A stretch of 64,000 bases of DNA from Marsupella aquatica (taxonomy: Eukaryota > Plantae > Marchantiophyta): the NCBI GenBank assembly GCA_973895155.1, contig OZ316893.1:22355844-22419843 (forward strand), read 5' to 3'. Each line of letters starts with the position of its first letter. Position 1 is the stretch's first letter. Shown piece by piece: positions 1 through 43,552 of this stretch. The position numbers and the translations under genes are program-made. The notes under the pieces were generated by a model that saw nothing but the letters and a program-made list of their open reading frames with translations, searched no databases and had not been told where the DNA came from.

Positions 1-1695
1 AGCAAAGGGGTTTTCTCTTGTGAGTCGGTGTAGGCCTACCTCTGTAGTAGTGTCCTGCATTGTTGCCGTTGCCGTTATTGTTGCCGATGCCGATTTCTTT
101 TCTTTCTCCAGTAGTTTCAGCAGACTCTGCATGCCTGGTTGCTGCATTGGCAAGTCCTCCTTCCTGGGCCTAAACACCTGCTCGATCGTAGGGCTAACAG
201 GTGGTTGAGGCTTCTCAGCCAACGGCCTCGGCGTTGGAGCTTCCTCGGGTGCCCTTACCTGCAGGGGAAGTACTGGGGCAAAAGTCTGACCTCTGGCATA
301 CCGGCACAACAGCGGCATGTGATAGCCAAGCCGCGACACGCTCCCCATGCCGATTACCTGCTGCTCCTCCTTTAAGATCTTCTTCAATTGGTTGAGGAGG
401 TACCCGTTGTAGTCCCGGCTTGGGTCTGGCCTTTCTGCCAGATAGACCTGTGCCTTGCCAATCTCTGCCCTCGGCAAGTTACAATGCATGGTCACCCGCA
501 AGAAGTCGATCATCTCTCCTATGTGCGGGTTGGTGCAGGTGTTCCAGAAGAAGCCATTCTTCGTTGATGGCCCGGGGAACGACCGGAACTCCTTGTCAGG
601 CAAGGTCTTCTTGGTATCAACTTTGGTCTTATTGCCTATCGGCAAGCCAAACACTTCGGCAATTACCTTGGGAGTAAGATAGAAATCCTTCCCATATATC
701 CTCGTGCAATTGGTCTCGGGTTCCCATGACCCCACGAATTCTAATAGGTCTGACTCCGGTACCTCCGGCTTCAGCCATGGTAATCTTACAAAGGCCTCTA
801 AGCCGGATCCGGCCATGAAGCCTTGATACTTCTTGGTCTGCATTGCCGTAAAGCATGCATCCTCCTCCCGTGCAAAATGTAGTTGCACTTCCACCGGTAG
901 GGTTGCCGCCTAGCCCTTCCAGGTGTCATCCCTGGTTGGAATGGCCTTGATGGGATCGACCTCCTCCTCTTCGGCTTCTCCCTGCCTCCTGTTCTGCTGC
1001 TTGGCTGGCTTCTTTGGTGCCGCCGACCTTGTTCTTTTTGCCGGGGTGGCTTCATTGTTGATGGCTCCCTTCCTCTTCATCTCTGCTGCCGTGGAGGTTT
1101 CTCCTAGCACCGTTGCCTGGGTCCACCTTTCCGTGCTACCCTTTAATTCCCAGTGTATGTCGTTGCAGTTCTTGATGGCCTCTCGGATGCCGACGACGCT
1201 GTCTTTGCAAAACATAAGATCGTCGAGTTGATTGGAGGTAGGCGTCCACAGGAACTCGTCCTTGATGAGTTCGCCTCCTAAGAAAGCCGTCTTCTGCAGC
1301 TCCCACAATCGAGCAAGCTCCTGCCGTTCTCGAGCTGCCCTTTCTGATTCCTCGTCCTCGTAAGTCTTGATGTACTCAGTTGCCCGTTCGAACAGGCATC
1401 CCCAGAAATGTGTCGCTTGATTGATGTTGCTCATACCCTCCTTAGGTCGATCGTCGGTATCTACTCTCTCCCCGAGTGCTTGCCCAAGCAGCTGACAGTA
1501 GTTGGCCTCCCGTAGTCGTCTGCCTAGTTCATGCTCGCAAATGAGCCACCATCTCCTACAAGCGCTCCTTACCCCTCTCCTCTGCCGGTCCTTCTTCCCG
1601 TTGATCCTTCCTAGCCGCCGACGCTTAACGCGCCCTAACCCTAATCAAGTTTTCACCCTCAGCGTCCTTACCTCCGGCCTCGGCCCGGGTTCCAT
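1..1695 (-). pseudogene. LTR-encoded ORF (>560 codons, 2 stops) with a PMD (plant mobile domain)-like segment
   Basis: ATG at 1695 (MEPGPRPEV), stops at ~1646 (TGA) and 910-912 (TAG), then open to base 1. Bases ~634-747 translate LLEFVGSWEPETNCTRIYGKDFYLTPKVIAEVFGLPIG, resembling the PMD core W..ET..F......T..DV...LGLP. Confidence 0.65.
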
Positions 1696-1810
1696 GGTTG
1701 CCCCTAATGGTTTATATTTTCCTTGTTTTGTCCCTATACTAAGGTGTTCCTAGGGTGCCTTCCTGCTTTACCCACTTAACTGGCCGAGTGATTCCTGTCT
1801 AGGCATCACA
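1..1810 (-). mobile_element. Long-variant LTR of the gypsy family at 9518-17170, running off the window start
   Basis: Reverse complement from 1810 begins TGTGATGCCTAGACAGG, like the LTRs at 9518 and 16408. Near-identical to them down to ...GGGAGCCAT (~1061), then continues differently with no LTR end seen. It interrupts the CACTA TnpD frame at 1810/1811. Confidence 0.9.
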
Positions 1811-4315
1811 ATACAACATAAATGTTGTGAGCTGTAAACGCTCTGCTGAGCCTATGAGACGCTCTCCAGATGCCCCAGTGAGTCTATCATCCTCGTAGTC
1901 AGCTCGTACCGCCTCATCTATCCATCCCCTAGGAGCACTAGGATCTAGTGTGGCAACTATGCTTGTACAGTAAAACATACTCTCTGCTCCAAGATGACGC
2001 TCCGCAATGCTACCTTCCACCCTAGCGCGATTAAAGACATATGACTTCATCACCCCCATATAACGCTCTACCCAATACATCCATCAACAATGTACTGGGC
2101 CTGCAATTGCAACCTCGCGCACTAAATGTATGAGGAAATGAACCTGACCATCAAAGAATGAGGGAGGGAGTGCCTTCTCCAACTTGCAGACAACCTCTAC
2201 TCCAAATATCTCCATAGCAGCAATGTCATCCTCCTGTACCTCCTTTTGACATACCCATCTTAAGAGCTTACCCAATGATCAAAGGGCATCACGAAGTTCC
2301 TCACTACCCAATCCAATAATAGCAACTGGAAGAACATGTTCAAGCAACCGATGATAATCATGTGTCTTCAAGAAAGATGGCCATTTTGGAGAATCCTCCC
2401 CCCCAAATGCCTTCCGAAGATTGGTACCATAACCTGTGGGAAACCTCATCAACCCAATACGTCTGCGAAACTCAATGCGCTCTGCCCTTGTCAAAACCCA
2501 AGGAGGATGGATGCTAGGGGGAGCACCAGGGGGGTCCAAAGATGGCCAAAAACCCAAAAGACCATGCATCCCCATCTCCTCACAACTTTCTCTCCAATTG
2601 TTATTTTTCTCCCCATATAGATGGCGAATCAATGATTTCCCCACATTCCCCTCAATGTGCATAGGGTCTAACAAGTGATTAATGGGCATATCTGACCAAT
2701 ATGGCAATTGTGACAATGCAGACAAACGGGTCATGCCACATCTGAATAATGGTAATGGATCACTCGGATCCTGAACTCTCCCCCATACCTCTCTCCAATA
2801 TGCTGGATCCTTCCGTTGAGGTTGAGGACAAATATCAGGTTGGCCCTCATCAGTATCATAAAGGAATGGATCACTCCTCCAAGGATGGTCTAGTGGAAGA
2901 TATTTAGTATGACCAATGTAAACAATTTTTTGCAGAGTACTTGACTTGGGCCTGGCCACCCCCTCCAAATCGGGTCCACATGTAGAGCAAGCTCGATAGC
3001 CTGATGTTTGCAATCCAGAAACATATCCAAACCCTGCCCAGTGCATAGAAAACACATTCATAAAATAAGGTTCATCAAGGCAAAAATCTGCATAATTGCA
3101 ATTAAATACAAGGTTTAGGTACTAGAGGAAATAAGGGTTTACCATAGCTGGTAAATCATGCATGGTCCACATAAGGATGGCCTTTAGAGTAAATACGCGG
3201 GATAAACCTCCTGTGTTGTGACGTCCATCATAACAATCCACTCCTCTCCACAGTTGTATCAACTCATCAATCAATGGCTGCAAGTACACATCAATCTTTT
3301 TAACTTGCTTAGGACCCGGAATAATCATGGAGAGTAGTAGGTGACCTTTCTTCATGGCCATCCAAGGAGGGATGTTGTAGTTTGTCAACACTACTGGCCA
3401 CACCGAATATGGTTTGGCTTTTTCTGTCAATACAAAAGGGCTGATACCGTCTGCTGCCAAGCCTAGTCGAACATGTCGTGGGTCAATTTTGAACTCTCCC
3501 CATCTATCCTCTACAAATTGATTGGCAGGAGAGTCAACCATCATCCGCATGGCACTAGAGGGTACAGCCATATCAGAACAATTTTGTGAGTGCCATACCA
3601 TCATCTCAGCCAACTCTGCACATCGGAATTGATGTCGCAATCGAGGGATAAGAGGAAAGTACCTCATAACCTTTTGCGGTACCTTCCCCGTCAACATGTC
3701 ATCACGGTACCGTGGCTTCTGACATTTAGGACATGTAGTGGCATTTTCATGCTCACCCCTAAAAAGAATGCAATCATCCACACATGCATGTATCACCTCA
3801 TACTTCAGGCCAATGGACCTCAACACCTGTTTAGCCTCTTTCCAAGAGGCTGGCAATGCATTGCCTACTGGCAAAATACGATCATGCAAGGTACGGAAAA
3901 CATCATCCAAAAGTAGATTGCTTGCCCCATGTCTTTGCTACAAGTTGAGCAACAACATTATTGATGAGAGCCGAGATAACCTACTCCCCTCGAATATGCG
4001 AGTACGGGCATGACGTTGCGCCTCCTCCCATTGCTTGTCTTGAGACCCCCTAGAAGGATGTGGATGACTAGTCCTTTCATGGGTTGAACCAATGTCCTCC
4101 AAACCAATGTCATCGTGATCATCATAGAATTGGTCCATGAGCTCATCCATGGCCCTCTCCTCATCAAGATGGTCTTGGATAGGATCATCACCATCATGTC
4201 GTACCCCATCCTCTTGCCTTTGCAGTTTATGCCCACGGTTGGCCACCATGGCCTCAACAAGGTGTTGTCGCATAGCTCGTGATATTACCCCAATATCAGG
4301 CGTTACATATTGATT
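1811..4315 (-). pseudogene. CACTA TnpD transposase (Transposase_21 and DUF4218-type regions), with stops, truncated by the LTR at 1810
   Basis: Motifs HACVDDCILF, YFPLIPRL, RHVRLGLAADG, YSVWPVVLTNYNIPPW, IDVYLQPLIDEL, LDPMHIEGN, LKTHDYH, PPSFFD...HL...GPV...WMYWVERYMG. Stops at 3938, 2279 and 2084; intron at about 3035-3150. Confidence 0.95.
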
Positions 4316-4439: not shown

Positions 4440-7400
4440 TCATGGACGACAACGCAAGGACAATTTTGGTGCATCCCACTCATACTCACACAATAACTCC
4501 TCACCAGCTCTAATGGTCCTAACAGCTACTGTCATGATATGGTCGTTGTGGACTAGCTCAAAATAGGGTATGTAAGAAACTCATCATTTTTTTTTGCTTT
4601 TTGTACAAGGATAGTAAGAAATACATTTTAGCATTAGTAAAGTACTTAGGGTTTGCAACCCTAAGTCACTAAGGAAAGATAGTAGGGAATCATGGAAGGG
4701 AAAAATATGTTGTTCTAAGAAGATGTAAAGGGATAAGTGAGGTCTTTATGGTAGGGCAGCAAATATTCTTTCCTTAGTTAGGATAGGCAACTAAGTCTGG
4801 ACCGGAAAATGACCCAACACCTGACATCTCATTTTTGGCTAATATTGGGTGCGGGGAGGTCCCTAGGGAACCCTGAAAAATTATGAAGTGAAGTAGGGTC
4901 TCAACCTAGGAATTGTGAGTATTTTGGCTGAACTTAAAATAACCATCTAGCGGGTCCCGGAGAAATTCGCCAAGGGGTAGATATTTTTGGTTCGACGTTA
5001 AAATTGGGTATAGTATAGCCCATAATATCCCTTGAAAGTCTAAGAAGTAGTTTATCAACTTTGGTTAGTTTTTGGGAGCACCTCAAAGATTGGGAAAAGT
5101 AATGCAACCTATAGATATGGGCAAACTTAGGTATATTTAGAAAAGTCAGTGCAGGGTATTTAGTGCGTTTGACAAATTCAGGAGGGAGTCCTATGTCCAA
5201 GGATCCCATAACTATGCTCAGAAGTTCTTTTAGACCTATGGGTGATTTTTGACATGGCTTTAAAAAGGGCTAGTACAAAGTTTTCTCCCGCGAGAGAACC
5301 AAATTTTTTCGAAGTGTGGAAATACGACGACGCGGCTGCGACGAGGCTAGCACGAGGCAGGAAGGAGTCTAAGCACGAGGGCGGCTGCGAGTTGAGTGAT
5401 TAGACTATAAAATCACATGGTGGAAAATCTATGGTGGGCTATTGTTGCTCCAGCACGAGATCGGCTAACTTAGGCAATGTGAAATTGATGCAGCAGCTAT
5501 CTAGTAAACGTGATCTCTGCCTGGATGCTGACAAATTGAGAAAGGGCAGGCACTACATAGGCTATAGAGCTTGTTGCCAAGGAAAACGTGGATGCTGCTG
5601 GCTGATTCACTCTACTGGCTGATTCACTCTACTGGTTGATTCAATGTGCTAGCTGATTCAATCTGCGGGTAGGTAAGCTTGTGCTGAGTAAATTCAAAAG
5701 AGAATGGTTGGCAATTGAGAATCCATGTGCTGAGAATTGACCAGCTGCTGCAATTTACAGCAGTTGTGAGCTATGGCTACTCCTGAGAAAATCAATCACA
5801 ATCCAGCCCAACAATTAGAAGGGACTCAGTCATAAATCAGAGGAGAAGCTACTGCAAAAATCAGTCAAGCAATTAGTCAAGGAATCATCCTCAAATCAGC
5901 TGCACAATCAGGCACGATGCTAAGCTCTATAGCTTCTGGAAAGACTGGACCTTATGAGGAACTCTCTCAGGTCGACACCTGGTATACACATAAGTGTAAA
6001 CCGGGACCTATGACAGTGTAATTCGGAGCCCTTTTGCACATAAGGGATTGAGAGAGGGAAAATGCCATAACTTGAGCTAGGGGCATCCGTTGGGGCCCAT
6101 ATTTTTTGTGCCGATTCAAGGGAAGGTAAAGCATCGTTGAGTGAAGGTAGAAACCCAGGAAAAGAAATATCCAGAGATATTTTAAACCGTCGCCATGGGG
6201 GTCCCGCTAGCTTGCAAACGGGAGCTGCCAAGGGGGAATGAATACCAGATGTAGGGCCAAACACTTTGGGTACCCATACCACTTTAGTAAGGCTCTAGGG
6301 AAGGGTACTTACCTTTGGTCGAAGGTGCAAGGCCATCAAGTTAATAGAAGTGAGTATAGAGGGTAGTTTGCTTAGGGTAGTATAAGGGGTACAAGTCAAA
6401 TAAGGCCAACTTTGACTAGGCATAACTTTGGACTCAAGTACTCTTTTTGCGAGCTTTCAAGTGCGTTGGAAAGCTGATGAAGAGGACCATAAGTGGAAGC
6501 AGGTTTGGAGGTCAAAGCATGCAACTCATGTGTGGCATATTCCAGGGCTTGGAAGGAGTCAAGCAATAGGTTGTAGAGTGAGCTATGAACTATAGTTTGG
6601 ACTTGGTGTGTTAGGAGGACTTGGGGGAGGTATAGTTGGACCCCAGGTCAAGCTTGGTGTGGTGTGAAAGGAGAATAGTATATAAGGTGGAAGATTTTAT
6701 TTGTTGAGGACCAGAAGTCTCATTCTTAAGTGTAAGCTCTACCTTGCAAGTTGGGGCTAAGATTGAGAAGGGGAAGGAGGTCCATGCTTAGTGTGGAGAG
6801 TGTGTAGTGACCTTTTATGTAAGGATTGAGTATACAATAAAAGGATTCTTCCAATCTTCATTGTGACCACTAAGTGTGACTAAATATGAAGTGTTTGAGA
6901 GCAAGAGAAGAGTCCATGCTAGGATGCAATCTTGGTCTAATCGTGAAGGGGATGTGCTGGTACACAACCAAGGCCAGGGAGACAAGGTTAAGGTGGAGCA
7001 CTACTTTGGGGTTTAGAGAGGATTGTATCTTGATGGTGGAAAGTACCTTGCTTTGTGTGAGAACCAAGAGGAAGAGTTCTTTGCAAGAAGAGTTTTTCTA
7101 GAGCTCAAGGGGGTGTGTGGACCCAAACCAAGGCCAGGGGGGCAAGGTTAAGGGGTAACACTACCTTGAGGATCTTGAGGGGACTTAAGCTTGAAAAGAA
7201 AAGTACTTGGGGTTCTTGGGTGTTTGTTTTAGGGTCTACTCTAAGGTGACAGCTTGGAGTGGATATCCCCCTTGCTAATCCTTGGAGTAGAGGAGAGAGA
7301 AAGAGTGGGAGTGCAAAAGTAGTCAAGGTGACTACCTCTCTAGAAGTGGAGAGTTGAAACTACTTGTGTAGGGTGTACTTAGACCTTGCATGCACATTTC

Positions 7401-8767
7401 AGAAGTTTTGTCAATCCTTTGTGACCCTGGTATGACATGGAGCAAGTATTAGGTAGTTTTTTAGGGGAAAAGATGCTTAAGCTCCTTGACAAGTGTTTGA
7501 CATAGAGTTGACAGTCGTCCATATGTTTCACAAAATATGGATGTCTAGGTGGACCAAACATTTGAATCCACTCTACATTAGCCTCCAAACCTCTATCTCT
7601 ACCTGTGGTACTATTGATGTACCCTGCTAAATTACCGTTCCGAATAGGGTCACCATCAATCATTCGGCAATGCCATGGCCTAGTGAAGACCTCATCCGGG
7701 TCTGAGTCCATCCTCAATGCATACACCCCCCACCTTGGATGTTGACGCAACAAAATATTCCAACTCTTGGAGTTATATACAGCCCCAATGTAAGGAAAGA
7801 GGTGCTCTCCATCATAACCACGTCTCCATGGCTTTGGAGGGACCACAATATCCTCCAAAGCAAAAAGACCATATCCTATATCAGGACCAATAGAGGATGC
7901 CTTCACTATCCAAGGGCGACCCCATATCTGAACTGGTTCATCTGTAGGAATAAAATCTGGAAATTTGAAGAGACTTGAAGAAAAGTCCTTCAAAACTTTG
8001 GCAGCCCTACCAGTGAGATAGGATAGTCCAAATCTGCCCTCAACGCAAATATAATCTACATTACCGGCTGGTCGATCACTAGTACCTAACACCTCCTCTC
8101 GTCTGTCTACCTGGTCCAGTGGTCCATACTGCCGTCTACGTCTACCAGATCATGGTCGTGTACGTAGGACCCTAGTAGTCACAACCTCGGGCCGAGAGAC
8201 CGGTTCCCCCTCTACATGCTCATGTGTGGGCATGGGAGTGGGGATAGGAGCAGGTGGGCTAAGAGGCATCTAGGCAGGAGGAACTGCAAGCAACTCCCTG
8301 GCCCTTGCTAGAAACCCTTCCAACCACACAGCTTCAGGAACCAAAGGAGGTGGGGGCCTACGAGGCACCTATTTCAACACACGTACAATGGTTTTACACA
8401 AATCAATAAATTAAGTAGTGCCAGGATGTAAATGCAAGATAATTAAGCAATACCCTAAATTGGAATGCATACATGGAATGAATAGGGGACATAAACATAT
8501 CTGTACCTGGCTAGGCAAATACCCTGGCATATCACCCTTGTGGCGGCCATAGTTCTCGATGTGCTCACAAGTCTCCCACGCATGTCGAACCACAAGTCCC
8601 TTACATCTCACACACCAGCAAGGTATGGGTCCTAGTGGAGCACGAGGACAATTTGGAGGAGGGGGTGGAGGAACCTCCCCCTCAGACGAGCTTGTGTCTG
8701 AGTCTGAATCTGACGTGGAACTATCAGAAGTAGACATCTGCATGCATGAAGTACACTCTGAATTCAT
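4440..8767 (-). pseudogene. Zn-finger / Pro-rich / SET-domain gene of element A, split by a solo LTR
   Basis: Exon 1 8767-8507 (CWCVRC...H), GT-AG intron 8506-8369, exon 2 8368-7514 joined in frame to 4541-4440 after removing the LTR and one TSD. Motifs GYGLFA, PYIG, IDG, GNLAGYINS, ANVEW, RTIRAGEELLCEY. Two premature stops in the linker. Confidence 0.85.
4547..7513. mobile_element. Solo LTR, 2967 bp
   Basis: TGTGGACT...AGTTGACA termini; 5-bp TSD GTCGT at 4542-4546 and 7514-7518; no retroelement coding domains; internal short repeats (GCTGATTCACTCTACTG at ~5600-5660). Confidence 0.9.
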
Positions 8768-9517: not shown

Positions 9518-10279
9518 TGTGATGCCTAGACAGGAATCACTCGGCCAGTTAAGTGGGTAAAGCAGGAAGGCACCCTAGGAACACCTTAGTATAGGGACAA
9601 AACAAGGAAAATATAAACAATTAGGGGCAACCATGGAACCCAGGCCGAGGCCGGAGGTAAGGACGCTGAGGTGAAAACTCGATTAGGGTTAGGGTGCGTT
9701 AAGCATCGGCGGCTAGGAAGGATCAACGGGAAGAAGGACCGGCAGAGGAGAGGGGTAAGGAGCGCTTGCAGGAGATGGTGGCTCATTTGCGAGCACGAAC
9801 TAGGCAGACGACTACGGGAGGCCAACTACTGTCAGCTGCTTAGGCAAGCACTCGGGGAGAGAGTAGATACCGACGATCGACCTAAGGAGGGTATGAGCAA
9901 CGTCAATCAAGCGGCACATTTCTGGGGATGCCTGTTCGAACGGGCAACTGAGTACATCAAGACTTACGAGGACGAGGAATCAGAAAGGGCAGCTCGAGAA
10001 CGGCAGGAGCTCGCTCGATTGTGGGAGCTGCAGAAGACGGCTTTCTTAGGAGGCGAACTCATCAAGGACGAGTTCCTGTGGACGCCTACTTCCAATCAAC
10101 TTGACGATCTTCTGTTTTGCAAAGACAGCGTTGTCGGCATCCGAGAGGCCATCAAGAACTGCAACGACATACACTGGGAATTAAAGGGTAGCACGGAAAG
10201 GTGGACCCAGGCAACGGTGCTAGGAGAAACCTCCACGGCAGCAGAGATGAAGAGGAAGGGAGCCATGGGACGCACCACA
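9518..10279 (+). repeat. 5' LTR
   Basis: TGTGATGC...GCACCACA; differs from the 3' LTR by about 13 transitions and 1 indel (counted by eye). Confidence 0.95.
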
Positions 10280-10283
10280 TTTT

Positions 10284-10300
10284 TGGCGCTAGATGGAGGG
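10284..10300 (+). promoter_or_regulatory. Primer-binding site, probably tRNA-Asn
   Basis: TGGCGCTAGATGGAGGG, 4 bp after the LTR; matches the complement of the plant tRNA-Asn(GTT) 3' end (TGGCGCTAGAAGGAGGG, from memory) with 1 mismatch. Confidence 0.7.
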
Positions 10301-10348
10301 GGCATTTCTTAAGCCGTGAGATATGAAGTTAGAACGGAAGCGTAGGTA

Positions 10349-13243
10349 ATGACTGACCTTACGCCGAGGGAAGAAAGAGTGATTCAATGGGAGAGAGCTC
10401 GACTGCAGCAGCTCGCCAGGTGGCATGATACACAACGACTGAGAGGGGCAGAAAGAGCTGGTAGCTCCGAAACTGGAAGTGGCGTCGAAGAAGACATACC
10501 AGAAGAAGAGTCGGTAAGGAGAAGTGAGTCTCCAACCGACATGGGGGAACCAAAGGCACGGCCAGACGAGAGGCCAGGGACCAGACTGAGCCAGCGGTCG
10601 TGCATACATTACAAGGCATTTCATGGGAGAGGAGATGAGGATCCGGACGAATAGTTGGATGATTTCGAGGGAACCGCTGCAGCAAATGGAGAATCGGCCA
10701 TCAAGATGCAGATTCTTCCCGGCCTGTTCAAGGGTGAGGCTAGGCCTTGGTACAGAGCATTAGATGTGGAAGATCAAGCCATCTGGGATATCTTCAAAAC
10801 ACTCTTTGTTAAGGAGTTTTGACCCATTGGAACTTCAGAACTAGCAGTGCTGAAGTTGGGACGACTTCGGTTCAACGAGAACAAATCCTTCAGGAAGTTC
10901 TTGCAACGCTTTCAGAAACTGGTAAGACGTACAAAGACCAATGCATCTGAAGGTATGCAACTTCAATGGTTGGTGAATGCTTTGCCACAGAAGATGAGTT
11001 TTGCAATTAGGAAGGAGAACCCGGAGACTTTAGCCAATGCAATTAAGGATATTCAATTATACATTAATGCAGATATCACAAGCCGGAAGAAACAGCTTAA
11101 GTCTGAGAGTTCCTCATCGGAGGAGGGATCACCCCATAAGAAAAAAGATAAGAAGAAGAAACATTCTAAGAAGTCAAGAAGTGATAACTCAAGCTCAGAT
11201 AGTGGAAGTAGCAAGAGTGAGTCATCTTCTAGTTCTGAAGAAGAAAAAACTAGGAAAAGGAAGGGCAGAAGGAGAGGGAGAAGGAGAGGAGAAGGAGAAG
11301 TATGGTGTGCCTTATGTTATAAAACCGGACACCATAAAGATGCGTGTCCTAAGCTTAATACTAATCATGTTCGGCATGTGGCCGAGATCAGACCATGTCA
11401 GGGAGAAGTAGAGTACTTTTTAGGAGATGCCGCTGATAGTGTTTTCGGCATCAGTGAGACTGGAGCACGAGACCTATCCAACAGACCTGCATCTCTATGG
11501 TCAGGGTTAAGGAACAATCCAGGAGAGATGTATCCTCGGATTATTCAGAACCCGTCAGTACCTCCTAGGCCGAATGTGCAAAGATTTGCGGCATGCTATA
11601 ATTGTGGTCAACCTGGCCATTTTGCTAGAGAATGCCCGAATGCACGCAAACAGGGTGATGGACAACCAACTCAGCTATGTATGGGATGCCGACAGGAAGG
11701 TCATATGCTAGGGCAATGTCCTACTTGGTTGGCAGGCCTGGCCGCAAATCATAAACTTTTGCCGGTCAAGATCTTACCGCCAGGTACTACCCCCGGAGGA
11801 GTTCAAATCAACCACATCAAACTAGGATGGCAAGAGGATGCCGAGGCAGAGTTCGTACCATCTGATGATGAGGCCGAAGCCCTATCAACCTTCTCAGAAG
11901 AGGATTTAGATCATGATTGCTACCGGGTCTCTACTCGATCTACCAGAAGGAAGGAAAGGTGGGATGGGCTGGCCAAAAATAAAGGGAAGGTTACGGAGGA
12001 AAAGATCAACTCTTCGTCAACATCAACGGAAGGAGAAGGGAGGGCTCCGGCAATACAGGTAAGCCATGAGCCCACCAGTGAACCCAATCCTTCACAAGAT
12101 AGCGACTTCAATCGAGATCATCCTAAGTTGTTCTACCCCTCTGTTACGGCTAGTGTTAAGGAACAACTAAGAGAATTAGAAACCCTGGAGAATACCGAAG
12201 CCATTGCCAAGGATGTAAAACGAGCAAAAGCATTGTTTGCTTCGGAGGACCCAACAGCTGTGGAGACTAGCGTGGCAAAACTGGCCGAATCCAAGACGGA
12301 GACACCACCAGAGGAGAAGCCGATTGTTCCCTATGACCTGGCTAAAGATGTACTAGAATCTAGAGTCTCAGCAACAGTAGGTCAACTATTGAAAAATAGC
12401 CCGTACTTCCGGAAGCAATTAAGGAAGGCTATTCTCGGCAAGCCGAGATTACCCAAGGTAGCAACCAGATCCGACGTACTAATGATAGAAGAAGATCAAG
12501 GAGCCCCAGCATTACCATTAATGATTCAAGGAGAATTATTACTACGGGTACCCATCGATGGAGGATCAGGGGTATGTATTATGATTGATTCAACAGCAAA
12601 AGGGTGGGGTCTAACACCGGAGATGACTAGAAGAGTGTTGAACATGGCCAATGGATATCAGGTCATTCCCACGGGAGTGTTAACCGGCATCAAGACAGAG
12701 ATAGGAGGTATCTTCTTTAGCATTAACTATGTAGTAATGAAGCCGGTAAATCCTACGTCATTCCGGCTATTGATTGGTAGGCCATGGCTGTACCTAGCCG
12801 AGGTAATAGAAGATTGGGATAAAAAGCAGTTCACTTTTGGGACCCCCTCTATCACGGTATCCTGGGACACTAAGGATGACCGTAGGAAAAGCATAAGGGA
12901 AGTAGATGGGTACGACAGTGGACTGGAGTCAGCCGATGAAGTACGTTGGTTAGAATGCCTCACTGACCTAACCGAAGAAAGTGTCTTTGGACCAGAGGTA
13001 CCCCCCAGCGGATTATGGCAAGAACCAATGGAAGGTGACTTGGAAGAAGAAGACGAAGAGGTCGATGACTGCTTTACAATAGAATCCACCTTTTTAGCTG
13101 CAATTCCGGAGGAAGTAAAGGATGTAGACCAATTGGATGAAATGGCTAAGGGGGGAGCAGTAGCAGGGACAGTGGATTTTCTGCAGGCGTTGTGGCAGAG
13201 CCAGCAGGGTTCACAATGCCATCGATCATCGGCAAGGAATTAA
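10349..13243 (+). pseudogene. gag: gag-protease
   Basis: In-frame stops at 10652 and ~10820. Three CCHC knuckles (CALCYKTGHHKDAC, CYNCGQPGHFAREC, CMGCRQEGHMLGQC); protease IDGGS...LLIGRPWL. Confidence 0.9.
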
Positions 13244-16200
13244 ATACCAAGGGATCGGCATACAAGCCGATTACGAGGGCAGAACAAATTGAGGCCCTAT
13301 TAGAAGCCGGGAGAGCACAGCGGCCTGACTCTCAGGAGCAAGAGGTGGATGAGATGGACAGACACAATCCAGAGCCAAGGCAGGAAGGGGAGCCGACCAC
13401 CAATTCAAAACCGAATAGACCGGCAAGGGGACAATCTATGGACACCAAGGAAGGGACCGACTCGGCTAGTCCAGCCAAGATTCCAGTTTATGGAGGTATG
13501 AGATTGGAGCCTAGACTGGAAGCCAAACTGGACCCGAATTTGAAGAAGCAGATTAATATGATCCAAGCACGGCAATATCGGAAGCTCGACTTAGGAGAGG
13601 GAAGAGAACTGAACTTAGGGAGAAACCTAGCACCTGAGCTCGAGAAAGAGATCAGTGACTTATTGATTGAATTTCAGGATGTGTTTGCATGGAGTCACCA
13701 AGATCTAAAGGGAGTAGATCCAACACTAGGGGAACATCGAATTGATCTCATGTTAGGAGCCAAATCATTTCGACAACCAATTCGAAGGATGAACCCGAAG
13801 TATTCCCTGCTGGTCAAAACGGAAATCGACAAACTAGTGGAAGCTGGATTCATCACTCCAGTCCTGCATTCAGACTGGGTGTCTCCAATTGTGATAGTTC
13901 CCAAGAAAGCTGGACCCGATGGTAAACCCAAGATCCGGGTTTGTCAGGATTACAGGAAGCTGAATGAAGCAACATTAAAAGACCATTTTCCTTTACCGTT
14001 TACTGATATGGTACTAGACATGGTAGCCAGTCATGAACTATATTCATTCATGGATGGGTACTCTGGTTATAACCAAATCAGGATTCGGCAGGAAGACCAA
14101 ATCAAGACGGCCTTCATCACGGAATGGGGGATCTATGTCTTCAATCGTATGTCGTTTGGACTCTGCAACGCACCAGCTATGTTTCAATGATTAATGGTGA
14201 ACATTTTTCATGATTACTTGAGAAAGTTCATGGAAATCTTCATTGATGACTTTGCAGTATTCGGGAAGGCATCGAAACATGCTAAATACCTCAGGAAAAC
14301 CTTCATGAGATGTAGAGAGGTGGGTCTCAAGTTACACCCAGATAAATGTTTCTTTGCAGTAACCGAGGGGGTGCTACTAGGTCACAAGGTATCAAGGAAG
14401 GGCATTGAGATTGACAAAGGTAAGCTAGCAGTATGGCTAGATATCATGCAACCTAAGAACATAAAGGATGTAAGATCCTTCTTGGGATGCATTGGTTACT
14501 ATCGCCAGTTCATCAAGGATTTTGCCAAGCTAGCTTTACCATTAACTAACATGCTCAAGGCAGGAGCAGACTTCGAACCCACACCCGAACGAGTCACAGC
14601 GGTGGTAGAATTGAAGCAGATGTTAGTAGAGGCCCCAGTCATGATAGCACCAGACTGGAACAAAGATTTTCATGTTTTTGTAGATGTCTCGGGCTTCTGT
14701 ATCGGCTCAGTACTAAGTCAGTTGGATGAGAAAGGAAGGGACCATCCCATATACTTCGCAAGCCGTCAGCTTGCCGATGCCGAACGGAACTACTCCACCA
14801 CAGAGAGAGAAGCATTAGGAGTCATTTATTCTTGTAAAAAGTTTAGGCATTATTTACTAGGGTACAAGGTAATCTTTCATACCGATCATGAAAGTTTGAA
14901 GTACCTAGTCAATAAGCCGGACCTTACAGGCAGAGTAGCAAGATGGATTTTGCTATTACAGGAGTTTGACTATGAGCTGAGGGTCAAGCCGGGAAAGTTA
15001 CACGCCAATGCCGACTTCTTTTCAAGGATCACAGGTGAACCTGCCACGGATTGCATTGATGATTGATTCCCCGACGAGGAGCTATTCGTTGTGGAAATAG
15101 CTGATACATGGTACCCTGAGATTTTACAATTTCTCAGCACTTCCAGATTATAGCCAGGATTAAGCCGAGAGCAAGCCGCAGTCTTTGTGCGGAAGGTCAG
15201 ACATTATCAGTGCATTAAAGGCATACTGCACAAGCATGGAATCAACGGCACGATTCAAAGGTGTTTGGAAAAGGGAGAGGTAAAACGAGTCCTACGGGCC
15301 ATGCATGGAGAGGAGGCCGGAGGACATTTTGCCCCAGTAACCACGTCTAAGAAGATATTAAATGTCGATTACTGGTGGCCCACCTTGCACAAGGATGTCT
15401 ATCAGTTTATCAAACAATGCGATCCTTGTCAACGAGCGGGAGGACCAAGGGCGTCCACCAGACATCCACTGCACCCTATTCTACCTCTGGCACCATTCGA
15501 GAAGTGGGGTATTGATTACATTGGACCTCTGAAACCACTGACCCACCCTCGACGGAACAAGTACATAATCCTGGCTACGGATTATGCAACTAAATGGGTA
15601 GAGGCCAGACCAACAACGAAGGATGATGCAATTACTACAGCTAGATTCATGTATGAGCAGATCTTCACCAGGTATGGAGCACCCCTAGAATTAGTTAGTG
15701 ATAGAGGAACCCATTTTTTGAATGATATAATTAGTCGTTTAAATGAGCAGTATTTAGTTAAACATAGGCCTACTACTCCCTACCATCCAAAGGCAAATGG
15801 GTTGACAGAACGAGCAAACAGAATTATAGGAAAGATATTGAACAAGGCAGTAGCTCAGAACAAACTCGATTGGGATGATAAATTGTTTGCTGCTGTTTTT
15901 GCTTACAATCTTGCCTATAAATCCACTACCGGTCATACACCCTTCTTCTTAACCTTTGGACAAGAAGCCCTGGTACCCATGCAACTTGAGATACTGACAT
16001 TTCAAGTTACAATTGAGGAAAGAGCCTCAGCGGAGGAGAGCCTAAAGGAGCGAGAATATAGGTTAGAAGCTTTAGAGGAGGCGAGAATGATTTCAGCCGA
16101 GAGAGTAGAATATAGAAAGAATATCATGAAGCAGCAGTATGATAAAAAGTTGAAAGTAGTTAGTATTCACACCGGTGATCTTGTGCTACTTTATGACAGT

Positions 16201-16419
16201 AGGTATAGTAGGTTTCCAGGAAAGCTTTTCACTCGCTGGTTAGGACCCTTTAGAGTAACCATGATGTTCCCCAATGGCTCCGTACAATTGGCCAACATTA
16301 CGGGAGAGGTATATCCAGTTCGCATCCATTATGACCGCCTCAAGAAATACTATATGGACGAAGATGAAGTTGTTCGCGAGGACGCTTCACAATTAAGTGG
16401 GGAGCTATGTGATGCCTAG
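13192..16419 (+). pseudogene. pol: pol: RT, RNase H, integrase
   Basis: DYRKLN, MDGYSGY, FGLCNAP, FIDDF; RNase H DVSG...EREAL...TDH; integrase H-H-C-C, WGIDY, SDRG, NGLTER, GPF. Stops at 14188, 15064 and ~15150. Confidence 0.95.
16391..16407 (+). promoter_or_regulatory. Polypurine tract
   Basis: AATTAAGTGGGGAGCTA directly before the 3' LTR; a near-identical tract occurs in the second gypsy element. Confidence 0.75.
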
Positions 16420-17170
16420 ACAGGAATCACTCGGCCAGTTAAGTGGGTAAAGCAGGAAGGCACCCTAGGAACACCTTAGTATAGGGACAAAACAAGGAAA
16501 ACATAAACAATTAGGGGCAACCATGGAACCCGGGCCGAGGCCGGAGGTAAGGATGCTGAGGGTGAAAACTCGATTAGGGTTAGGGCGCGTTAAGCGTCGG
16601 CAGCTAGGAAGGATCAACGGGAAGAAGGACCGGCAGAGGAGAGGGGTAAGGAGCGCTTGCAGGAGATGGTGGCTCATTTGCGAGCACAAACTAGGCAGAC
16701 GACTACGGGAGGCCAACTACTGTCAGCTGCTTAGGCAAGCACTCGGGGAGAGAGTAGATACCGACGATCGACCTAAGGAGGGTATGAGCAACGTCAATCA
16801 AGCGGCACATTTCTGGGGATGCCTGTTCGAACGGGCAACTGAGTACATCAAGACTTACGAGGACGAGGAATCAGAAAGGGCAGCTCGAGAATGGCAGGAG
16901 CTCGCTCGATTGTGGGAGCTGCAGAAGACGGCTTTCTTAGGAGGCGAACTCATCAAGGACGAGTTCCTGTGGACGCCTACTTCCAATCAACTCGACAATC
17001 TTCTGTTTTGCAAAGACAGCATCGTCGGCATCCGAGAGGCCATCAAGAACTGCAACGACATACACTGGGAATTAAAGGGTAGCACGGAAAGGTGGACCCA
17101 GGCAACGGTGCTAGGAGAAACCTCCACGGCAACAGAGATGAAGAGGAAGGGAGCCATGGGACGCACCACA
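16408..17170 (+). repeat. 3' LTR, containing an open frame from 16523 to the LTR end
   Basis: Direct repeat of 9518-10279. Confidence 0.95.
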
Positions 17171-20100
17171 CCCCTCCAAAAGCAAGGTACTACACATCAA
17201 ATCCAAACACAAAGATTAGCCTAATGAAGGGGTTTAATATTATCCTAACAAAAGGTATAATGTTCTACTAATAAAACCTCTACATACACCCATAATCCCC
17301 TATAAAGAAATGAAACAAAAGGCTTTCACCCGAAATGGTTCATACAAAAACTTCTTGTAGTATTTTCTTGATCCTATATTACATATCATAGTATTGAGTT
17401 CCCATCACCACAACGTAACCACCCCTAAAACACCAAGACTCTATACACAATTGCATCATTCATTAATTAGAGCCCAATATATTAAGCATGCAAGACCATA
17501 GCTTATCAAAAAAATTACATAGTCCGGTACAAACCCCAAAATTTGTTCTCCGCAACAAAGAAACTTGCAAGAGGTCCCTCTACATGCATGACACGTTCAC
17601 TGTCCCGTTCACATATGTAGAGCCCTACAAAACGCGGATTCAAATATGAAAGCAAATAATAACTCCAACCATGTGCCCTTACCCCATACAAAACCTAAAT
17701 ATCCTAAATTATACTCTAAACCCTCCAATCCCATACCCAACCCAAATTCAAAACATTATATTGGACCCCCTTTGGGAAAGCCAAGAGGTATCCGATATAA
17801 CTTCATGAGGGGTCCGATGCAATAGGAAACGGGCCACACTTGGTAAATACACGGCCACAAGAAAAGGACGAGGGGTCTGAAGCAGATAGTTTTGGAAAGT
17901 CTGATTGCGTGTCCGATACCTTTGGTTTCGCAAAGTTCGAAACAAAAAGAATCGGAAGCAGCAGGTTTTGTTTCAGAAAAAAGAACCGATGCAGGTGCGA
18001 AGACCCGCGCGTCGGGCCCCGTTTCGCACTTGGTGTTTTTCAAATTTTTTGAAGCTGGATCAAGGAGGAGAGCTTGAAGGAGGAGGAGAGATGGAGGGGG
18101 GCGGGGGATCAGGTGGTGGTGGAGAGCAAAGGGGACCGTCCCAGCCATACAATGAAGTTATGAGGGACATTTTTGTGGCCAAGGCAGGGCTGAGTGTGGA
18201 GGACGCAGAGAGAGTAGTCCCACTCCTCCAAACGCTGATTGATGCCTCTTGGCGTGAGGCAGAGAAGACTGCTGCTGCAAGCATTGCAAGTGAGAAGGAG
18301 GCAAAGAAGAGGAAGAAAGAGGCAAAGAGAGGCAAGGGGGATGTAGAGGAGACACTGTCTCCAAGAAAACAAGAGAAAAAGCTTCGAAAAGAAGCTAGGG
18401 CAATTGAGAAGGTGCGATTGGAGGAGCAGAGGCAAAAGGAGGCAGAGAGAGCTCTCAGGCCTGAGCTAGCTCTCAATTCGGGTGGTGGTCCATTGCCTAA
18501 GAGCTACCATCTATTCCGAAGCCAATTCAAGCAGGTGCTGAGGGCCAATTTGGGGCCATTGGATTACTGGGGCAAGAAGAAGGAGGAAGAGAGATTGAGA
18601 ATCAGAGAGCAGGTGAAGGAACGGTTCAGGAACGGGGCCTACATTGATGACAGGTTCCTAAACAAATGAATTTCAGCATCACTCTCAGACATGCGCAATC
18701 ATCAGCGAGAGAAATTCAGAAAGTACCTTGGAGATATGGCAGTGGATGCAGAGGTGATCAGGGAGGAGGGTTGTCCAGACGATGTTTCCCCGGATGAGTG
18801 GGCGGCTTGGCTTGAGGAGGAACTCTCAGTCCGTGCCTGGCTGAAAAGAAGACATTGGGACAACGAAATTAGGCTGGCAGAGGAGAAGCGAAAGGCTGGG
18901 GAGAATGTTGATATCCTCCCCCTTCAACAGAACCTGCAACAATGGGCAGCTCAGGCAGCAAGACTCCCCAAACCACCAAGATCACTATATTCATTAAAAC
19001 TGAAATTATAAAGGATATAGGGAAATTTGGCGATTTAAAAACATAGTTTTAGGCATGAAAATTGTAAATTTGGAAGATGAAAAATGAAAATTCAAGCATC
19101 ATTAAATGTAAATTTCGGGACAAAAAAATGAAATTTTGGGAAAGTAAAATATTAAATTGGATGATATTAAAAAACATTTGGGTGATAAAAGTGTTCATTT
19201 GGTTGGAAAATAGATAGAATCTAGTAATAACATATAAGCTTGGATAGCATCTATATTCAAAACATTTAGCTTGAGTAAGATATCTAACTAAGCACCAATA
19301 CAATGGAATGACTATAGTGTCTAGACAAAGTTAACTAGGATGATATCCAACCTACTAGAAGGAATGAAATGGCATCATTTTCTAGAATTAAAATATACTA
19401 AGACAAATAAAATAATAATTATAAGAAAGTCCATTCAATAGCTTTGAGAGATCATAGAGTATTAATTTGATTGTCTTGTTCTCTCACTTTAGACAAACGC
19501 ATGGAAATCAACTCGACCCTCTTAATCACAAGTCATTTGAGTGGAGACTTGTAACCTACGAGTTCTATCAATCTACTCATCAATTATACCTTCCATGTAA
19601 ATTTTGAGAGTTTTCAAAACATTCTTAGGAATTGTCAAACCTCTATCCATAATATTTTGTTCTTTAGCACCTGACTTAAACCCATACATTGCAGAATTTG
19701 CAAACTGCCAACTTTGAGTAACATTGTCAAACCCAGGATCCAGCTCCCAAGTCTTAGTGGTTTGAAAGCAACGTTCATATCGAACATCATCCTTTGCATC
19801 ATGCTTACCATGTTTAGGCCTCCACCATTGTACTTGGAACATAGGAGCATTCCTAAGAGGAATGCTCTCAACAGACGTTGAAGAAGACCCTTCAATATGT
19901 TGCAAATCTGTTGAGGGAACCTCATGGTTTGGATCCACACCACCCAAAGCTCGAACCAACCAGAAACGCCCTTTGCCATTTTCCTGTTCCCATTCATCCT
20001 CTGGACGTAAAAATACAAAGTGACCTTCTTGAATATCTTGTAGAGGAATCCAACGTGCAGGTTCTCGCTCTTATCGTGCACCAACAAAGGGTGCAGCTTG

Positions 20101-39073: not shown

Positions 39074-41222
39074 TATGATATATATATATGTCATGTTTGA
39101 CTTCAGCAACCGAATCCTAATATATAGAGATCTAGGGTTCACTAGTAGTTGACTAGTAGTCAATAATATATAATGGCCAACATATATGTTAACTGTAAAA
39201 GATACCTATGCAATTAGGTGGATACAAATGTAGTAGACTTTTACCAATTGTACATTGATACAATTATTGTAATTCAATGGAGGCTGGTGCTACTACCTCT
39301 AGCTCCTGCTATTTCCTATATAGTATTATATTTGTCAGTGAATTGAAATACCAGCATGAGTACTTTGTCTTATGCTCAAAAGGTTGAATTGGTTTGCTTT
39401 GTCTACTAAAAGAATAATGTTTGCTTAAATAAATATTTTAAATTATAAAAATTGGACAACTGAGATGAAAAGAGATCGAGCCTTCTTATTAAGGTTGGCA
39501 AAACAAGAAACACTTCTCATTATAATATTCAGGTATATACGTTGACAAAGAAAACGTTTACTGTACTAGGAATATTGAATTCTCCAAATAGGCTGATGTA
39601 AATCAAGGAATATACAAAATACCCAAATCATTTTGCAAAAGTAGGATTTTACAATACCCCAAAGTAGGATTTTACAACATGCCTATGATTTATCTTCAAG
39701 GACTTTGTCCCACATGTGAAATCTGGGTATATTGAAGTTTCCTATGCCGTCCAAACAGCCAACATAACATCCCGGGGAATGTTTCATAAACCCATTTAAG
39801 GTCAGTTTCCCCACTTCTTTGTCAAAAATATGGGGGAAATGGGTTTACATCTAGGATATTAGCCAAGGTGGGGGTAAGACAGAAACTCCTTGTGTCACTT
39901 GACGGCTGAGATGTCCCCAAAATCATCTTGTAACCTGTGCCATGGTTAGTCTTTGGCCAAAAATCAGTTGTCAATGGCAAATGTCTTTCCCCCTCCCCTT
40001 CTATTGTAAGTTCCTCGGACAGTGCTTGCACAAGATTCTCCCAATATTTGACCAGAGGAAATCTCTCTTTATATGCTGCAAAGGTCTCATCCTTACAACT
40101 TTTCTTCAAGAAATCAATATAGCAATTAAGGAATGGGATGATTTCTCCAACTTTCTTTTGTACATCCCTAGATATAGGTTTTGCAAATGGTTGGCCTTCC
40201 GGTAAAATGAGCGCATTTGTGATGGGATCAGTTCTCCAAATGGACCTCCCCATTGCCGGAAGCCAAGGTTGCTTGACATGTGCTTTATATTGATACACTG
40301 GCACATTATCCCTCATGGAGAAAAGAAATGCCACTGGTTTTGAGTGACCTTCTATCTCTTTCACCTGGAAAGTTTTCAAATACTCCTTGTAAGATGCAAC
40401 CTCTTGAATCAATCGTGGTACAGGATGAATGCTTTCACACTCCCAAACCTCAGCCATCAACCCCAAGAGGGTAGCAACCTCTTTGTATCTGACCTGTTTG
40501 GATACTTGAGAAAATAATGCATCCACGTCTTCATGGGTGTGGCCAACCATGAGGAATGACATTTGCACAGTTTCAAACACCCCCCTGCTAACAAGCTCAG
40601 TGCAAAATGCCATCACATATTGATTTTTGTTATCTTTCCCTGAATTGTCCATCTGCAACGTTAGGTGCCTTGGTAAGGGCTTGAAAGAGCCCCTAGTAGT
40701 CTCAGGATCATCCTTAGAACCAACATCCACTGTGCTTGACTTTTTAGTCTCCTGACCATCTTCAATGCCTTGAAATCGAACAATTGAAACATTTTTGGGT
40801 TCCAAGTAACCAGCCAGAAATGCTTCAAAGTCTAGAAGGGACTGAAATATTGGCCTAGTTGCATTCCAATTCAATCCCTCAAGAAGGTCTCCAGTTTTGT
40901 CTCCTGTGTAATCTTCCAAATCTTGGAGGCATTTGGCCAAAGATGTCACGGTAAAGTCTGCATCTCCAGGCCAAAGTCCAGTCAAACTGAAATGTGCATA
41001 CACTCCAGGATCTCTTCCATGGGTTAACATCCCAGTAAGAGCAATAGGCAAAGGCTGACCACTACCAGAGAGGGATTTTGGAGTGGGGACTAACCTGGGG
41101 ATCCAAGTCTTGGCTTGATCCATCTTATCGTGAATAATGCAAAGATAGTTTTGAGGATCCTTCTTTGCAAGAACCCTATGAGCATAGTAAACATATCTTC
41201 TTGACATTTGTTCACGAAGATG

Positions 41223-43552
41223 TGTGACGCCAATGACATGGTCCTTATTTTGTAATCTGATTAAGTAGGTTGCTGTATGCAAGGAGTAGCTATTGATATT
41301 ACATAACAATTAGCAAGATGGCAAGAATAAGGGCAATCATGGCGTTAAGAGTAGGGAAATAAAAACTATGTCGCGGGTGGTCGACGACCATATCTCTTTC
41401 AATATGTCACCAAATCCGGATCTGTAAAGAGCATTGGAAAGATCTGGTCAAGGCGAGTAAAATCGATATAAAACACTTGGGAAACGGAGGTGTATTAAGA
41501 GAGATACGGCCTGATTAGTGTGACGGGTTAACTTATGGCCGGAATTAGCGGATTCGGCTTCAGTTTCGGGTTAACCCAAGCTCGACCACGGCTTAGCTTA
41601 TGTGAGCACGGCTTCAGCTTAGCTCAGGTAAGCACGGCTTCAGCTTAGCTTAGGTCAGCACAGCTTCAGCTTAGGCTTAACCTAGGTTCGGATTAGATTG
41701 AACTCGGGTTAGCCTAAACTCGGGCTCAGGTTAGCATAGGTAAGCTCGGGTTCGGGCTCAGCTTAGGCTAGGTTAGCGGATAGCGGATAGCGGGTAGCGG
41801 CCTAACCCGAGACCACGGGTTAGCTCTACTCGGGTTAGATAGGATAGCTAGGTTAGCCGAACTCGGGTTAGCTATGTAACTCGGGTTAGCGCAGCAGTGA
41901 GTACCCCCTCTCGGTTGCGGGGGCATAACTCTCTGTGTATTTGACCAAATCGGCTATAATTGACCTCGTTGGAAAGAGGAGCTCAAGCCGCTTCCAACGC
42001 TGCTATCCACGCAGCAAATGGTTGAATACAGAAATCGGGAGAGGAGGCGTAAGCTCGCGAAAACCATGGAGGAGGGCCAAATCCGAAGTACATAGCCAAT
42101 TCGAGATAGAAATAAAGCTGCGAGTTAGGGTTCAGTAGTTAGAGATAGTGGCGGCTCTGTTAGGGCTAGGATGGGGCTCCAGCAGCGTAGTACCCAGCCA
42201 TTTGGGCTCAGTATGAGAGTATATAGAGCATCCCTCCGGTAGAGCCAGGGGGGGGGGACTTCAGTTGTGTGATCTCACTTAGACTGAGTAGCGGGGAGGA
42301 GCTCTGTGCAAGCAAGGCTGGACTTGGACGCTGCGTGTTGGGGAGAGCTTGGTTGTGCTATTACTCAGGGAGTAATCAGCCAAGCTTCACAACAACGGGT
42401 TGCTAGGTTTGCGAGCTGGATTGTGGCTCTTTCTAGTGGGCAGCACAACTGGGTTCTTTTCCCCCGATACAGAGCCTTGGTGATAGGTGATGTATTGGTG
42501 ATTGTAAACTGTGGGGAGGATTTCAATTCGATTTGCGGTGGGCACATTAGGGAGGCTGAGGTACTGATTAAGGGGCAGCAGGAGGAGCATTTACAGTTTA
42601 GTCTGGCAAGGCTACGTGATCCATGGGGAGTCCCGGCCTTTGTCTGGTGGAGAGCACTAAGGGATCTATGGCCAGAGCTGAGCTTGCAGGGCAAGCGTGA
42701 GGCCGGGCCTCATTGCAGTCTGGGATAGATCGCCGTTAGGCCTGGTACCAGCTTTGAAGTCGAGTCAACTATGCATGCGTAACTTGACGTTCTGAATTGG
42801 AGGTGTGAGATCTGTATGTGCCCCCAAGAATGAAGTGTAGTGAAGGAGGTTGAGTTCAGGATTGAGCTTGCATGGCAAGCACGGGGCTTGCAGGGCAAGC
42901 ACGTCACAATCTGGAGGAGACAGCCTTCGGCCCTAGTGTTCGGATCAAGTGTTCTCAGTGAACTATTGTGCACATCTTTGAATCTAATTGAGTTTTCCTC
43001 TCAGGCCTCATTTCTCTCATGGATGTGTGTGTGTGTGAGGCAATCTGAGTGTATGATGGAACTAGCAGCGCCACTGAGAGGTGTACCGGGTGCATTGAAG
43101 CGGGCTGGGTGAGGACTGTCATAGCTCTGATTGTTGAGAGTGGAATGGCAGAGTGGTGGGGCAATGGCTTAGAAGTCCCTAAGCCGGGAATCAGTCAGGA
43201 GTCACTGGTTTATGGGTACATTCCGGCGGCGGAATAGAAACATACCTATGACAGTAAGCATATGTATAGACCTATGCGCACCGTAGCGCTAGGCCCTGTG
43301 TGTACGGGCCCGATATGAAGACCCCTTCTCACCAGAACTATCATGAGCGCAGATCTGATCCCAACCTTGGTTCCTTGGGATTGAGCTTGGGTGATGTGTG
43401 ATAGAGTCTTGCTATGATAGTCTGGTGTTAAGGGCATAAACTGGTGTTTACCGGCATTCACAACATCCCTTCGTGATCCTCAGGTACAAGGAGATGGTTT
43501 TGGCACCCATAGTGACGTTTTTGGTGTTAAGACCCATGTCAATCGCGTGACA
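41223..43552. mobile_element. Solo LTR, 2330 bp, inside B's transposase
   Basis: TGTGACGC...GCGTGACA; TSD AGATG at 41218-41222 and 43553-43557; GGTTAGC/CTTCAGCTTA repeat field at ~41550-41890. Confidence 0.92.

Follow-up and report, generated by a model that had tools for sequence, protein, structure and literature searches.

The stretch of DNA analysed here (64,000 nucleotides of the liverwort Marsupella aquatica, contig OZ316893.1; hereafter the window) carries on its minus strand a gene with the motifs of a SET-domain lysine methyltransferase, lying within a CACTA transposon just upstream of its TnpD transposase exons. The SET gene is split by an insertion and preceded by an exon that it is predicted to share with TnpD. 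In transcriptional order, the features of the locus are as follows.

8507–8737, minus strand: predicted shared exon 1, with an ATG, a Ser/Asp/Pro-rich leader and a CxCxxC...H...G zinc-finger-like motif starting at 8620
7514–8368, minus strand: 5' part of the SET exon, with a Pro-rich linker, a family-specific beta-rich N-extension and SET motifs I–III
4547–7513, no strand assigned: 2,967-bp insertion, plausibly a solo long terminal repeat (LTR), TG..CA (TGT..ACA), with a GTCGT duplication
4440–4541, minus strand: 3' part of the SET exon, with motif IV including the catalytic-position Tyr, a 12-residue tail and the stop
1802–4313, minus strand: TnpD transposase exons (Transposase_21, DUF4218)
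SET motifs, minus strand: GYGLFA 7876–7859; PYIG 7795–7784; YALRM 7723–7709; IDGDP 7660–7646; GYINS 7624–7610; ANVEW 7582–7568; GEELLCEY 4505–4482; stop 4442–4440

The original prediction, made from the letters of the window alone, had recognised SET motifs in an open reading frame (ORF) lacking the last of them, and had proposed that this last motif is supplied in frame from 4541–4440 once a solo LTR is removed. All the motifs were located, motifs I–III at 7876–7568 and motif IV at 4505–4482, in a reading frame split by the 2,967-bp insertion and kept once the insertion is omitted; a 5-bp duplication, GTCGT, flanks it at 4542–4546 and 7514–7518. Contigs of four out of four public sequencing runs (three studies, two organism labels) join 4541 directly to 7514, with one to three such contigs per run and a summed depth of 74–3542. 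Since these contigs cross the site without the insertion, an uninterrupted gene exists as DNA, and in intact relatives both halves lie within one protein; together, contigs and relatives rule out a chance joining of frames. An intron was also rejected, as the 2,972 bases left out carry the 5-bp duplication and, read on the coding strand, lack GT-AG ends. A solo LTR is plausible, given the TG..CA ends, the duplication, the lack of a tblastn match to the Gypsy proteins of the window and the lack of an LTR pair, but its parent element was not found.

The SET part of the predicted ORF was right, but its coding exon begins at a predicted phase-0 acceptor before 8368 and, ahead of the SET domain, is broken by two in-frame stops that had been missed, nonsense changes at 8272–8270 and 8152–8150. 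At 8152 the other letter is the majority in all four runs, and in three of four by a second comparison (in the fourth, X8, 11 of 129 depth); at 8272 it is the majority in the three runs that cover the position. These stops are largely private to the window copy. Given two largely private stops and an insertion absent from other copies, the window copy is a decayed member of a multi-copy family, dead three times over. Its N-terminal piece alone gave no Pfam match at E ≤ 1 and its C-terminal piece matched Pfam SET positions 84–104 below the cut-off (E = 0.0073), while the read-through protein matched a hidden Markov model of the family built without it at 229 bits (E = 1.4e-70).

We then relied on relatives of the window protein for the identity of the domain. 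A word-indexed search (8 clusters) gave as best match the Calypogeia fissa protein P0001 (344 residues, 67% identical), and phmmer against 1.84 billion representatives gave 79 clusters at 50% identity. In a tree of 83 of 121 sequences (the remainder had fewer than 120 core columns), P0001 is sister to the window protein, with 77% identity over 174 core columns. P0001 scored 34.1 bits against Pfam SET (PF00856, positions 1–105; cut-off 22.4), and among the 56 of 93 family proteins covered by the Pfam scan, 25 lay above the cut-off, 14 below it and 17 had no match. The AlphaFold model of P0001 (mean pLDDT 77.8) had SET8 as its best Foldseek match (E = 1.5e-7), and structural comparison with VIA returned 36 chains at Z ≥ 8, the top rows all being SET/PR domains: Set1 (Z 11.5, rmsd 3.1, 126 aligned), EZH2 (Z 11.5, rmsd 2.7, 134 aligned), SET7/9 (10.9), SET8 (10.8), and LegAS4 and PRDM3 (both 10.4). 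As modelled, the family protein thus adopts a SET fold, and the SET assignment holds by profile, through the relatives, as well as by structure. The predicted absence of flanking cysteine clusters was borne out, none of the pre-SET, AWS, CXC or post-SET kind being present in the window protein or its close relatives.

Sequence matches to host lysine methyltransferase subfamilies are weak, and identity to minimal SET enzymes over the aligned core is only 16–29%. All named family members encountered are liverwort proteins, from Calypogeia (Jungermanniopsida) and Riccia (Marchantiopsida). The minimal viral SETs that the original prediction had mentioned showed no special tie to the family: viral models scored no better (best E = 9e-7), and an insensitive pattern scan of viral contigs gave 148 matches with no relative among them; a viral origin was rejected as a specific claim. 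The same kind of insensitive scan in prokaryote genomes gave 70 matches, one of them a weak 24-residue match to an ordinary chlamydial SET with RFINHS.

Some SET members on long branches lack the exon-1 motif (P0084/P0109 and P0089/P0114 of Calypogeia fissa, P0081, P0085, P0065 and L021); they occur as near-identical pairs and may be domesticated or ride other elements. In P0109 a DUF5763-like Cys/His repeat (E = 0.0074) replaces that motif. One Riccia sorocarpa gene call, P0103, joins a RING-like region to the family SET domain and may be a mis-joined model.

The position of the gene just upstream of TnpD agreed with the prediction. In the window, the TnpD acceptor (AG/AAT, phase 0) lies about 122 bp after the SET stop, and the TnpD itself, 40–55% identical to plant TnpD, has Pfam matches to Transposase_21 and DUF4218 with E values of 7.9e-41, 3.1e-8 and 7.8e-11; it contains a stop at 3940–3938, and a Gypsy element interrupts it at about 1810. 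A first scan for further loci with a wide family alignment found no conserved stretch. With a narrow family alignment, which biases the loci to one family, 25 metagenome loci were gathered, of which 12 continued for 640 bp or more past the SET match and 13 were too short for linkage to be read. TnpD lay downstream of SET in 11 of these 12 informative loci, and the twelfth was broken by a retroelement-like insert. Moreover, in the Riccia sorocarpa gene calls P0077 and P0082, from two further clades, SET parts run into Transposase_21 (P0082 was too partial for the tree, in which its neighbours, together with P0033, P0046 and P0061, were included). Two loci, L003 and L007, share sequence that starts exactly at a CACTAC end (6710 and 6664), 3.3 kb upstream of exon 1, and have different flanks; the SET-bearing family is mobile. 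Uninterrupted copies and their linkage to TnpD were found, as the prediction had called for, but for the terminal inverted repeats only one CACTA end was read per copy.

Between families the SET exon is under purifying selection (dN/dS, the ratio of nonsynonymous to synonymous divergence, 0.27–0.37 at dS 0.40–0.52; L001 against 19 family members), and single copies decay: within the family of the metagenome loci (L family) the median dS is 0.050 and dN 0.045 (167 pairs), and 12 of 21 loci contain in-frame stops. Constraint between families combined with decay of single copies is the pattern expected of a transposon gene. Among the differences listed between the window and run X6 (35 positions, 27 codons), 12 were silent and 15 were not, a tally that leans in the same direction but was not counted as support. 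The SET exon is a standing cargo of the CACTA element and not a host gene captured once.

The gene probably starts further upstream than the SET ORF of the original prediction, in a first exon at 8737–8507 predicted to be shared with TnpD. This exon is followed by a phase-0 donor after 8507, and both acceptors in the window (8368 and 4313) are phase 0. By hhalign it resembles the N-terminal transposase-associated domain of plant TnpD (probability 90.6%, E = 1.3e-6), and its profile matches TnpD proteins at residues 5–70. No Cys motif stands at the N-terminus of the TnpD body at 4313, whereas P0121, a related TnpD that lacks SET, begins with one. In the Calypogeia gene model P0001, exon 1 and the SET exon are joined. 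The distance from the Cys motif to the phase-0 donor is 42 nt in each of the 11 motif-bearing loci (39 nt in the window), and the AG/AAT acceptor follows the SET stop at 134–145 nt in 10 of 12 loci, compared with 122 nt in the window; the in-phase splice sites are kept between families that are 40% identical. In the five copies checked, no phase-0 donor occurs downstream of the catalytic Tyr before the SET stop is reached, so that an intact SET–TnpD fusion would not be simple to make. The predicted shared exon 1 and the conserved in-phase splice sites make it likely that SET and TnpD are splice alternatives, the SET exon having been inserted into the first intron of TnpD to give two mutually exclusive products.

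Conservation of catalytic residues was assessed in 52 aligned relatives. The motif-I glycines are kept (G193 in 45 of 49, G195 in 48 of 49), motif II has Tyr in 37 and Phe in 12 of 50, the motif-III Asn is present in 47 of 52 and the catalytic-position Tyr in 43 of 47; of the 44 complete rows, which span about 30–60% identity, 35 retain all five key residues. In motif III the His of NH is Ser in 51/52 and the Arg of RFINH is Gly in 47/52. The residue two after the catalytic Tyr is mostly aromatic (Trp in 22 and Phe in 6 of 47), and 42 of 44 have a non-aromatic residue at the switch position. According to a study of yeast Set1 (PMC3585878), H1017A and Y1052V have more H3K4me3, Y1052A has wild-type levels, N1016A, Y1054A and F1056A are null, and R1013H loses most H3K4me3. 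Set1 mutants altered at the His or at the switch position stay active, so NH-to-NS and the switch replacement count as changes of a tolerated type; the original prediction had singled out both as oddities of the window protein, and they proved to be general in the family but not necessarily disabling. From its residues, the SET protein is predicted with good though incomplete confidence to be a catalytically active lysine methyltransferase, and its small, non-aromatic switch position would probably allow multiple rather than single methylation.

We propose that one promoter and one donor (8507) would serve two acceptors. Use of the near acceptor (8368) would give a 395-residue protein of zinc finger, linker and SET domain ending at its own stop, whereas the far acceptor (4313) would skip the SET exon and give TnpD with a normal N-terminus. 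That the two products exclude each other in this way is, judged from the splice signals, quite probable. The shared finger may then bring the SET protein to sites that TnpD also occupies, where it would methylate a histone lysine on its own element, with an activating or silencing-blocking effect that keeps the element expressed. Recruitment, substrate and direction of effect are drawn by analogy with TnpA and VANC, and taken together we regard them as tentative, a little short of evenly balanced. A wider formulation, that a bryophyte CACTA lineage has kept a self-targeted histone methyltransferase across both major liverwort classes by insertion of an exon into its transposase gene, with splicing choosing between enzyme and transposase and the same finger aiming both, is possible though somewhat doubtful. 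Thus, from the original prediction of a transposon-encoded chromatin writer, the SET-fold gene as conserved CACTA cargo stands, but the writing of histone marks remains a proposal. Neither outcome named as fatal to the prediction, a failed SET match or a host gene taken up a single time and evolving neutrally, was observed.

A series of observations weighs against the proposal. All 11 linked loci belong to a single young family (dS ≤ 0.11) with about 40% identity to P0001, and one branch is common to the 19 dN/dS pairs. Neither set consists of independent cases, and independent support comes from about four clades (the window, the L family and two Riccia clades). SET is also less constrained than TnpD (0.31–0.48 versus 0.12–0.25 for the window against the L family, both near saturation). 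Set1, EZH2, SET7/9, SET8, LegAS4 and PRDM3 fall within about one Z unit of one another, an activating subfamily not being favoured, and from such tied scores neither a subfamily nor a target lysine follows. As for exon 1, Pfam Transpos_assoc (PF13963) was matched below its cut-off (E = 0.016–0.031), and the comparison with TnpD is partly circular because both sets were chosen by their Cys pattern; binding of DNA or chromatin by its finger is an assumption, and splicing was read from DNA and gene models only. Regarding activity, a key residue differs in 9 of the 44 complete rows, the Arg-to-Gly change in the RFINH motif (47/52) must be set against the loss in Set1 R1013H, and the post-SET tail, just 3–12 residues without a Cys cluster, is a real cause for doubt.

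Other explanations would account for the same gene. An active lysine methyltransferase might act on a non-histone substrate (TnpD, the accessory protein or a host silencing factor) and so tune transposition: minimal folds of the SET7/9 and SET8 type score as well as nucleosome-directed enzymes, the protein lacks a pre-SET, an AWS and a reader domain, and Set1 itself has a non-histone substrate (PMC3585878). As there is no evidence for such a partner, and other transposon-borne epigenetic cargo described in the available sources acts on chromatin or DNA marks, we consider this unlikely. Alternatively, a catalytically weak or dead SET domain could bind a histone tail as a reader or decoy, shielding the lysine from silencing enzymes or steering insertion. 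This would suit the altered NH and RF motifs of nearly all members and the very short post-SET region, which a review ties to inactivity in PRDM constructs (PMC3178901), but a pure reader would not need the S-adenosylmethionine-binding glycines, the Asn and both tyrosines that are kept in 35/44, and the idea is rather unlikely. The enzyme may instead write a repressive mark (of the H3K27, H3K9 or H4K20 type) on its own element or on competitors, as a form of self-restraint. EZH2 indeed ties for the top Z and SET8 tops the Foldseek matches, and an element that chooses between transposition and repression would be well served by mutually exclusive splicing; however, such ties carry no specificity and the transposon regulators known from the accessible parts of the cited papers are activators, so that repression appears distinctly unlikely.

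Two further alternatives concern the gene rather than its activity. SET might belong to one long fusion of zinc finger, SET and TnpD, or be a separate gene with its own promoter, and not a splice alternative. Gene calls joining SET parts to TnpD do exist (P0046, P0061, P0083 and P0086 as well as the Riccia calls P0077 and P0082), but they shorten the SET domain or follow its stop region, the in-phase donor that a fusion would use after the catalytic Tyr is missing in all five copies checked, and the TnpD body would acquire an N-terminal finger only through exon 1, which makes this very improbable. Finally, the SET gene could be a fragment of a host gene, captured once and drifting neutrally, an outcome that the original prediction had itself allowed for. 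The broken window copy, and within the young L family a dN close to dS with in-frame stops, are what such drift would leave, but it is already contradicted by the dN/dS of about 0.3 between families, by 79 clusters with kept motifs, by a position and splice phases that agree between distant families and by the lack of a close host SET subfamily, and is hardly credible.

The SET-bearing element is itself interrupted by other elements in the window, and its remaining features are as follows.

9518–17170, plus strand: nested Gypsy-type LTR retrotransposon, LTRs 98% alike, 5-bp duplication CCCCT
18160–18982, plus strand: divergent accessory ORF of the SET-bearing element, with one internal stop, interrupted by element B
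18983–54352, no strand assigned: nested CACTA-ended element B, with perfect terminal repeats CACTATATTCATTAAAAC and a 2-bp AT duplication, 35 kb
56100–56647, minus strand: probable terminus of the SET-bearing element, with a CACTAG end at 56647 and clustered ATCGGA/TCCGAT motifs

We infer that the CACTAG end at 56647 belongs to the SET-bearing element, the other end lying outside the window; the ATCGGA/TCCGAT subterminal motifs also occur at 17791–17951 and 54588–54701. In 5 of the 25 loci a homologue of the accessory ORF lies upstream of SET in head-to-head orientation; no Pfam family was found for it, and no PF03004 TnpA domain. The Gypsy element at 9518–17170 sits inside the CACTA element, upstream of exon 1. 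Gypsy-type elements lie at 1–1810, 9518–17170 and 60269–64000; the copies at 1–1810 and 9518–17170, both inserted in one CACTA element, have LTRs that are 98% identical and contain an ORF of 230–250 residues. Element B is nested in the SET-bearing element and is not part of the SET system. It holds a divergent Transposase_21-like gene at 26092–19573 (minus strand, E = 0.0024) and many ORFs, probably of further nested elements. ORFs at 39822–45363 (minus strand) resemble what we take to be another DNA-transposon transposase (IIHDKMDQAK, QMDNSGKDNKN), with accessory ORFs. There are 73-bp tandem repeats at 45444–45811, and 65-bp palindromic tandem repeats at 47680–48281 upstream of a multi-exon gene at 48436–52489 (plus strand; region 47100–53900). 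This gene presumably has ParB-like and methylase-like stretches and the ORF at 52822–53883 is presumably FCP1/HAD-phosphatase-like; to our eye, the genes at 47100–53900 (plus strand) are reminiscent of Plavaka accessory genes.

Among known systems, the proposed layout resembles that of En/Spm of maize and of Arabidopsis Spm3, where one unit yields a transposase and an accessory protein by alternative splicing. Spm3 reportedly makes its transposase and the anti-silencing factor TnpA from one spliced gene, and TnpA causes CG hypomethylation of cognate elements (10.64898/2026.08.24.746577); accessory proteins as splice alternatives are the rule in En/Spm (10.64898/2026.08.24.746577, PMC13547354). 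Unlike in En/Spm, the splice alternative in the window would be a SET-fold, enzyme-like protein sharing the finger of TnpD rather than the DNA-binding protein TnpA, and the element has a head-to-head divergent ORF. The wording 'SET domain' is absent from the accessible part of PMC13547354, and that of PMC11982613 holds nothing on SET cargo.

SET cargo is known from other transposons. The red-algal Plavaka PAG2 is a standing cargo of an EnSpm/CACTA-superfamily element, as is the SET exon here, and is proposed to modulate chromatin (10.1101/2025.02.11.637652); going by its description, PAG2 is a separate gene in which an N6-adenine DNA methylase is fused to SET, next to a Plavaka-type transposase, whereas in the window SET is on its own, preceded by a TnpD exon, and the transposase is a canonical plant TnpD. 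SET cargo of untested function is also described in HarbingerS and MuDR of the oomycete Phytophthora (PMC12730594) and in proto-Helentrons, where it resembles Clr4 (PMC4067079). These are likewise transposon-encoded SETs, but in other superfamilies and hosts, and unlike the Clr4-like Helentron SET the window family has no clear nearest host subfamily. It shares with SET8, SET7/9, PRDM PR domains, LegAS4/RomA and viral SETs a core fold without pre- or post-SET Cys clusters, and LegAS4, its best PDB sequence match (E = 2e-4), has NF in place of NH and so also lacks the His. What sets the family apart from these minimal enzymes is an N-terminal extension of its own, a loop inserted between NS and PN, and invariance of the LFP-G-Y and DG-P-R pattern. 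Our literature search, which extended neither to Repbase Reports nor to most subscription journals, found no report of SET in a land-plant CACTA element. The novelty is smaller than the original prediction suggested, several transposon lineages with SET, including red-algal EnSpm, being known; as far as this search reached, what is new is a SET exon between the predicted TnpD exons 1 and 2 in a land-plant CACTA element.

The anti-silencing factors known from plant transposons, VANC and TnpA, are binding proteins. If the proposal is true, a land-plant transposon would counter silencing with a catalytic chromatin writer of its own, from a SET family without a host orthologue. The sharing of an exon suggests that the element could alternate between transposition and the writing of chromatin marks. 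Whether transposons write their own histone marks becomes directly testable, because P0001 and the uninterrupted L loci offer small, intact, single-domain bryophyte proteins and tractable models exist. The family may, moreover, represent a SET clade so far overlooked, whose members would swell the number of SET genes counted in annotated liverworts.

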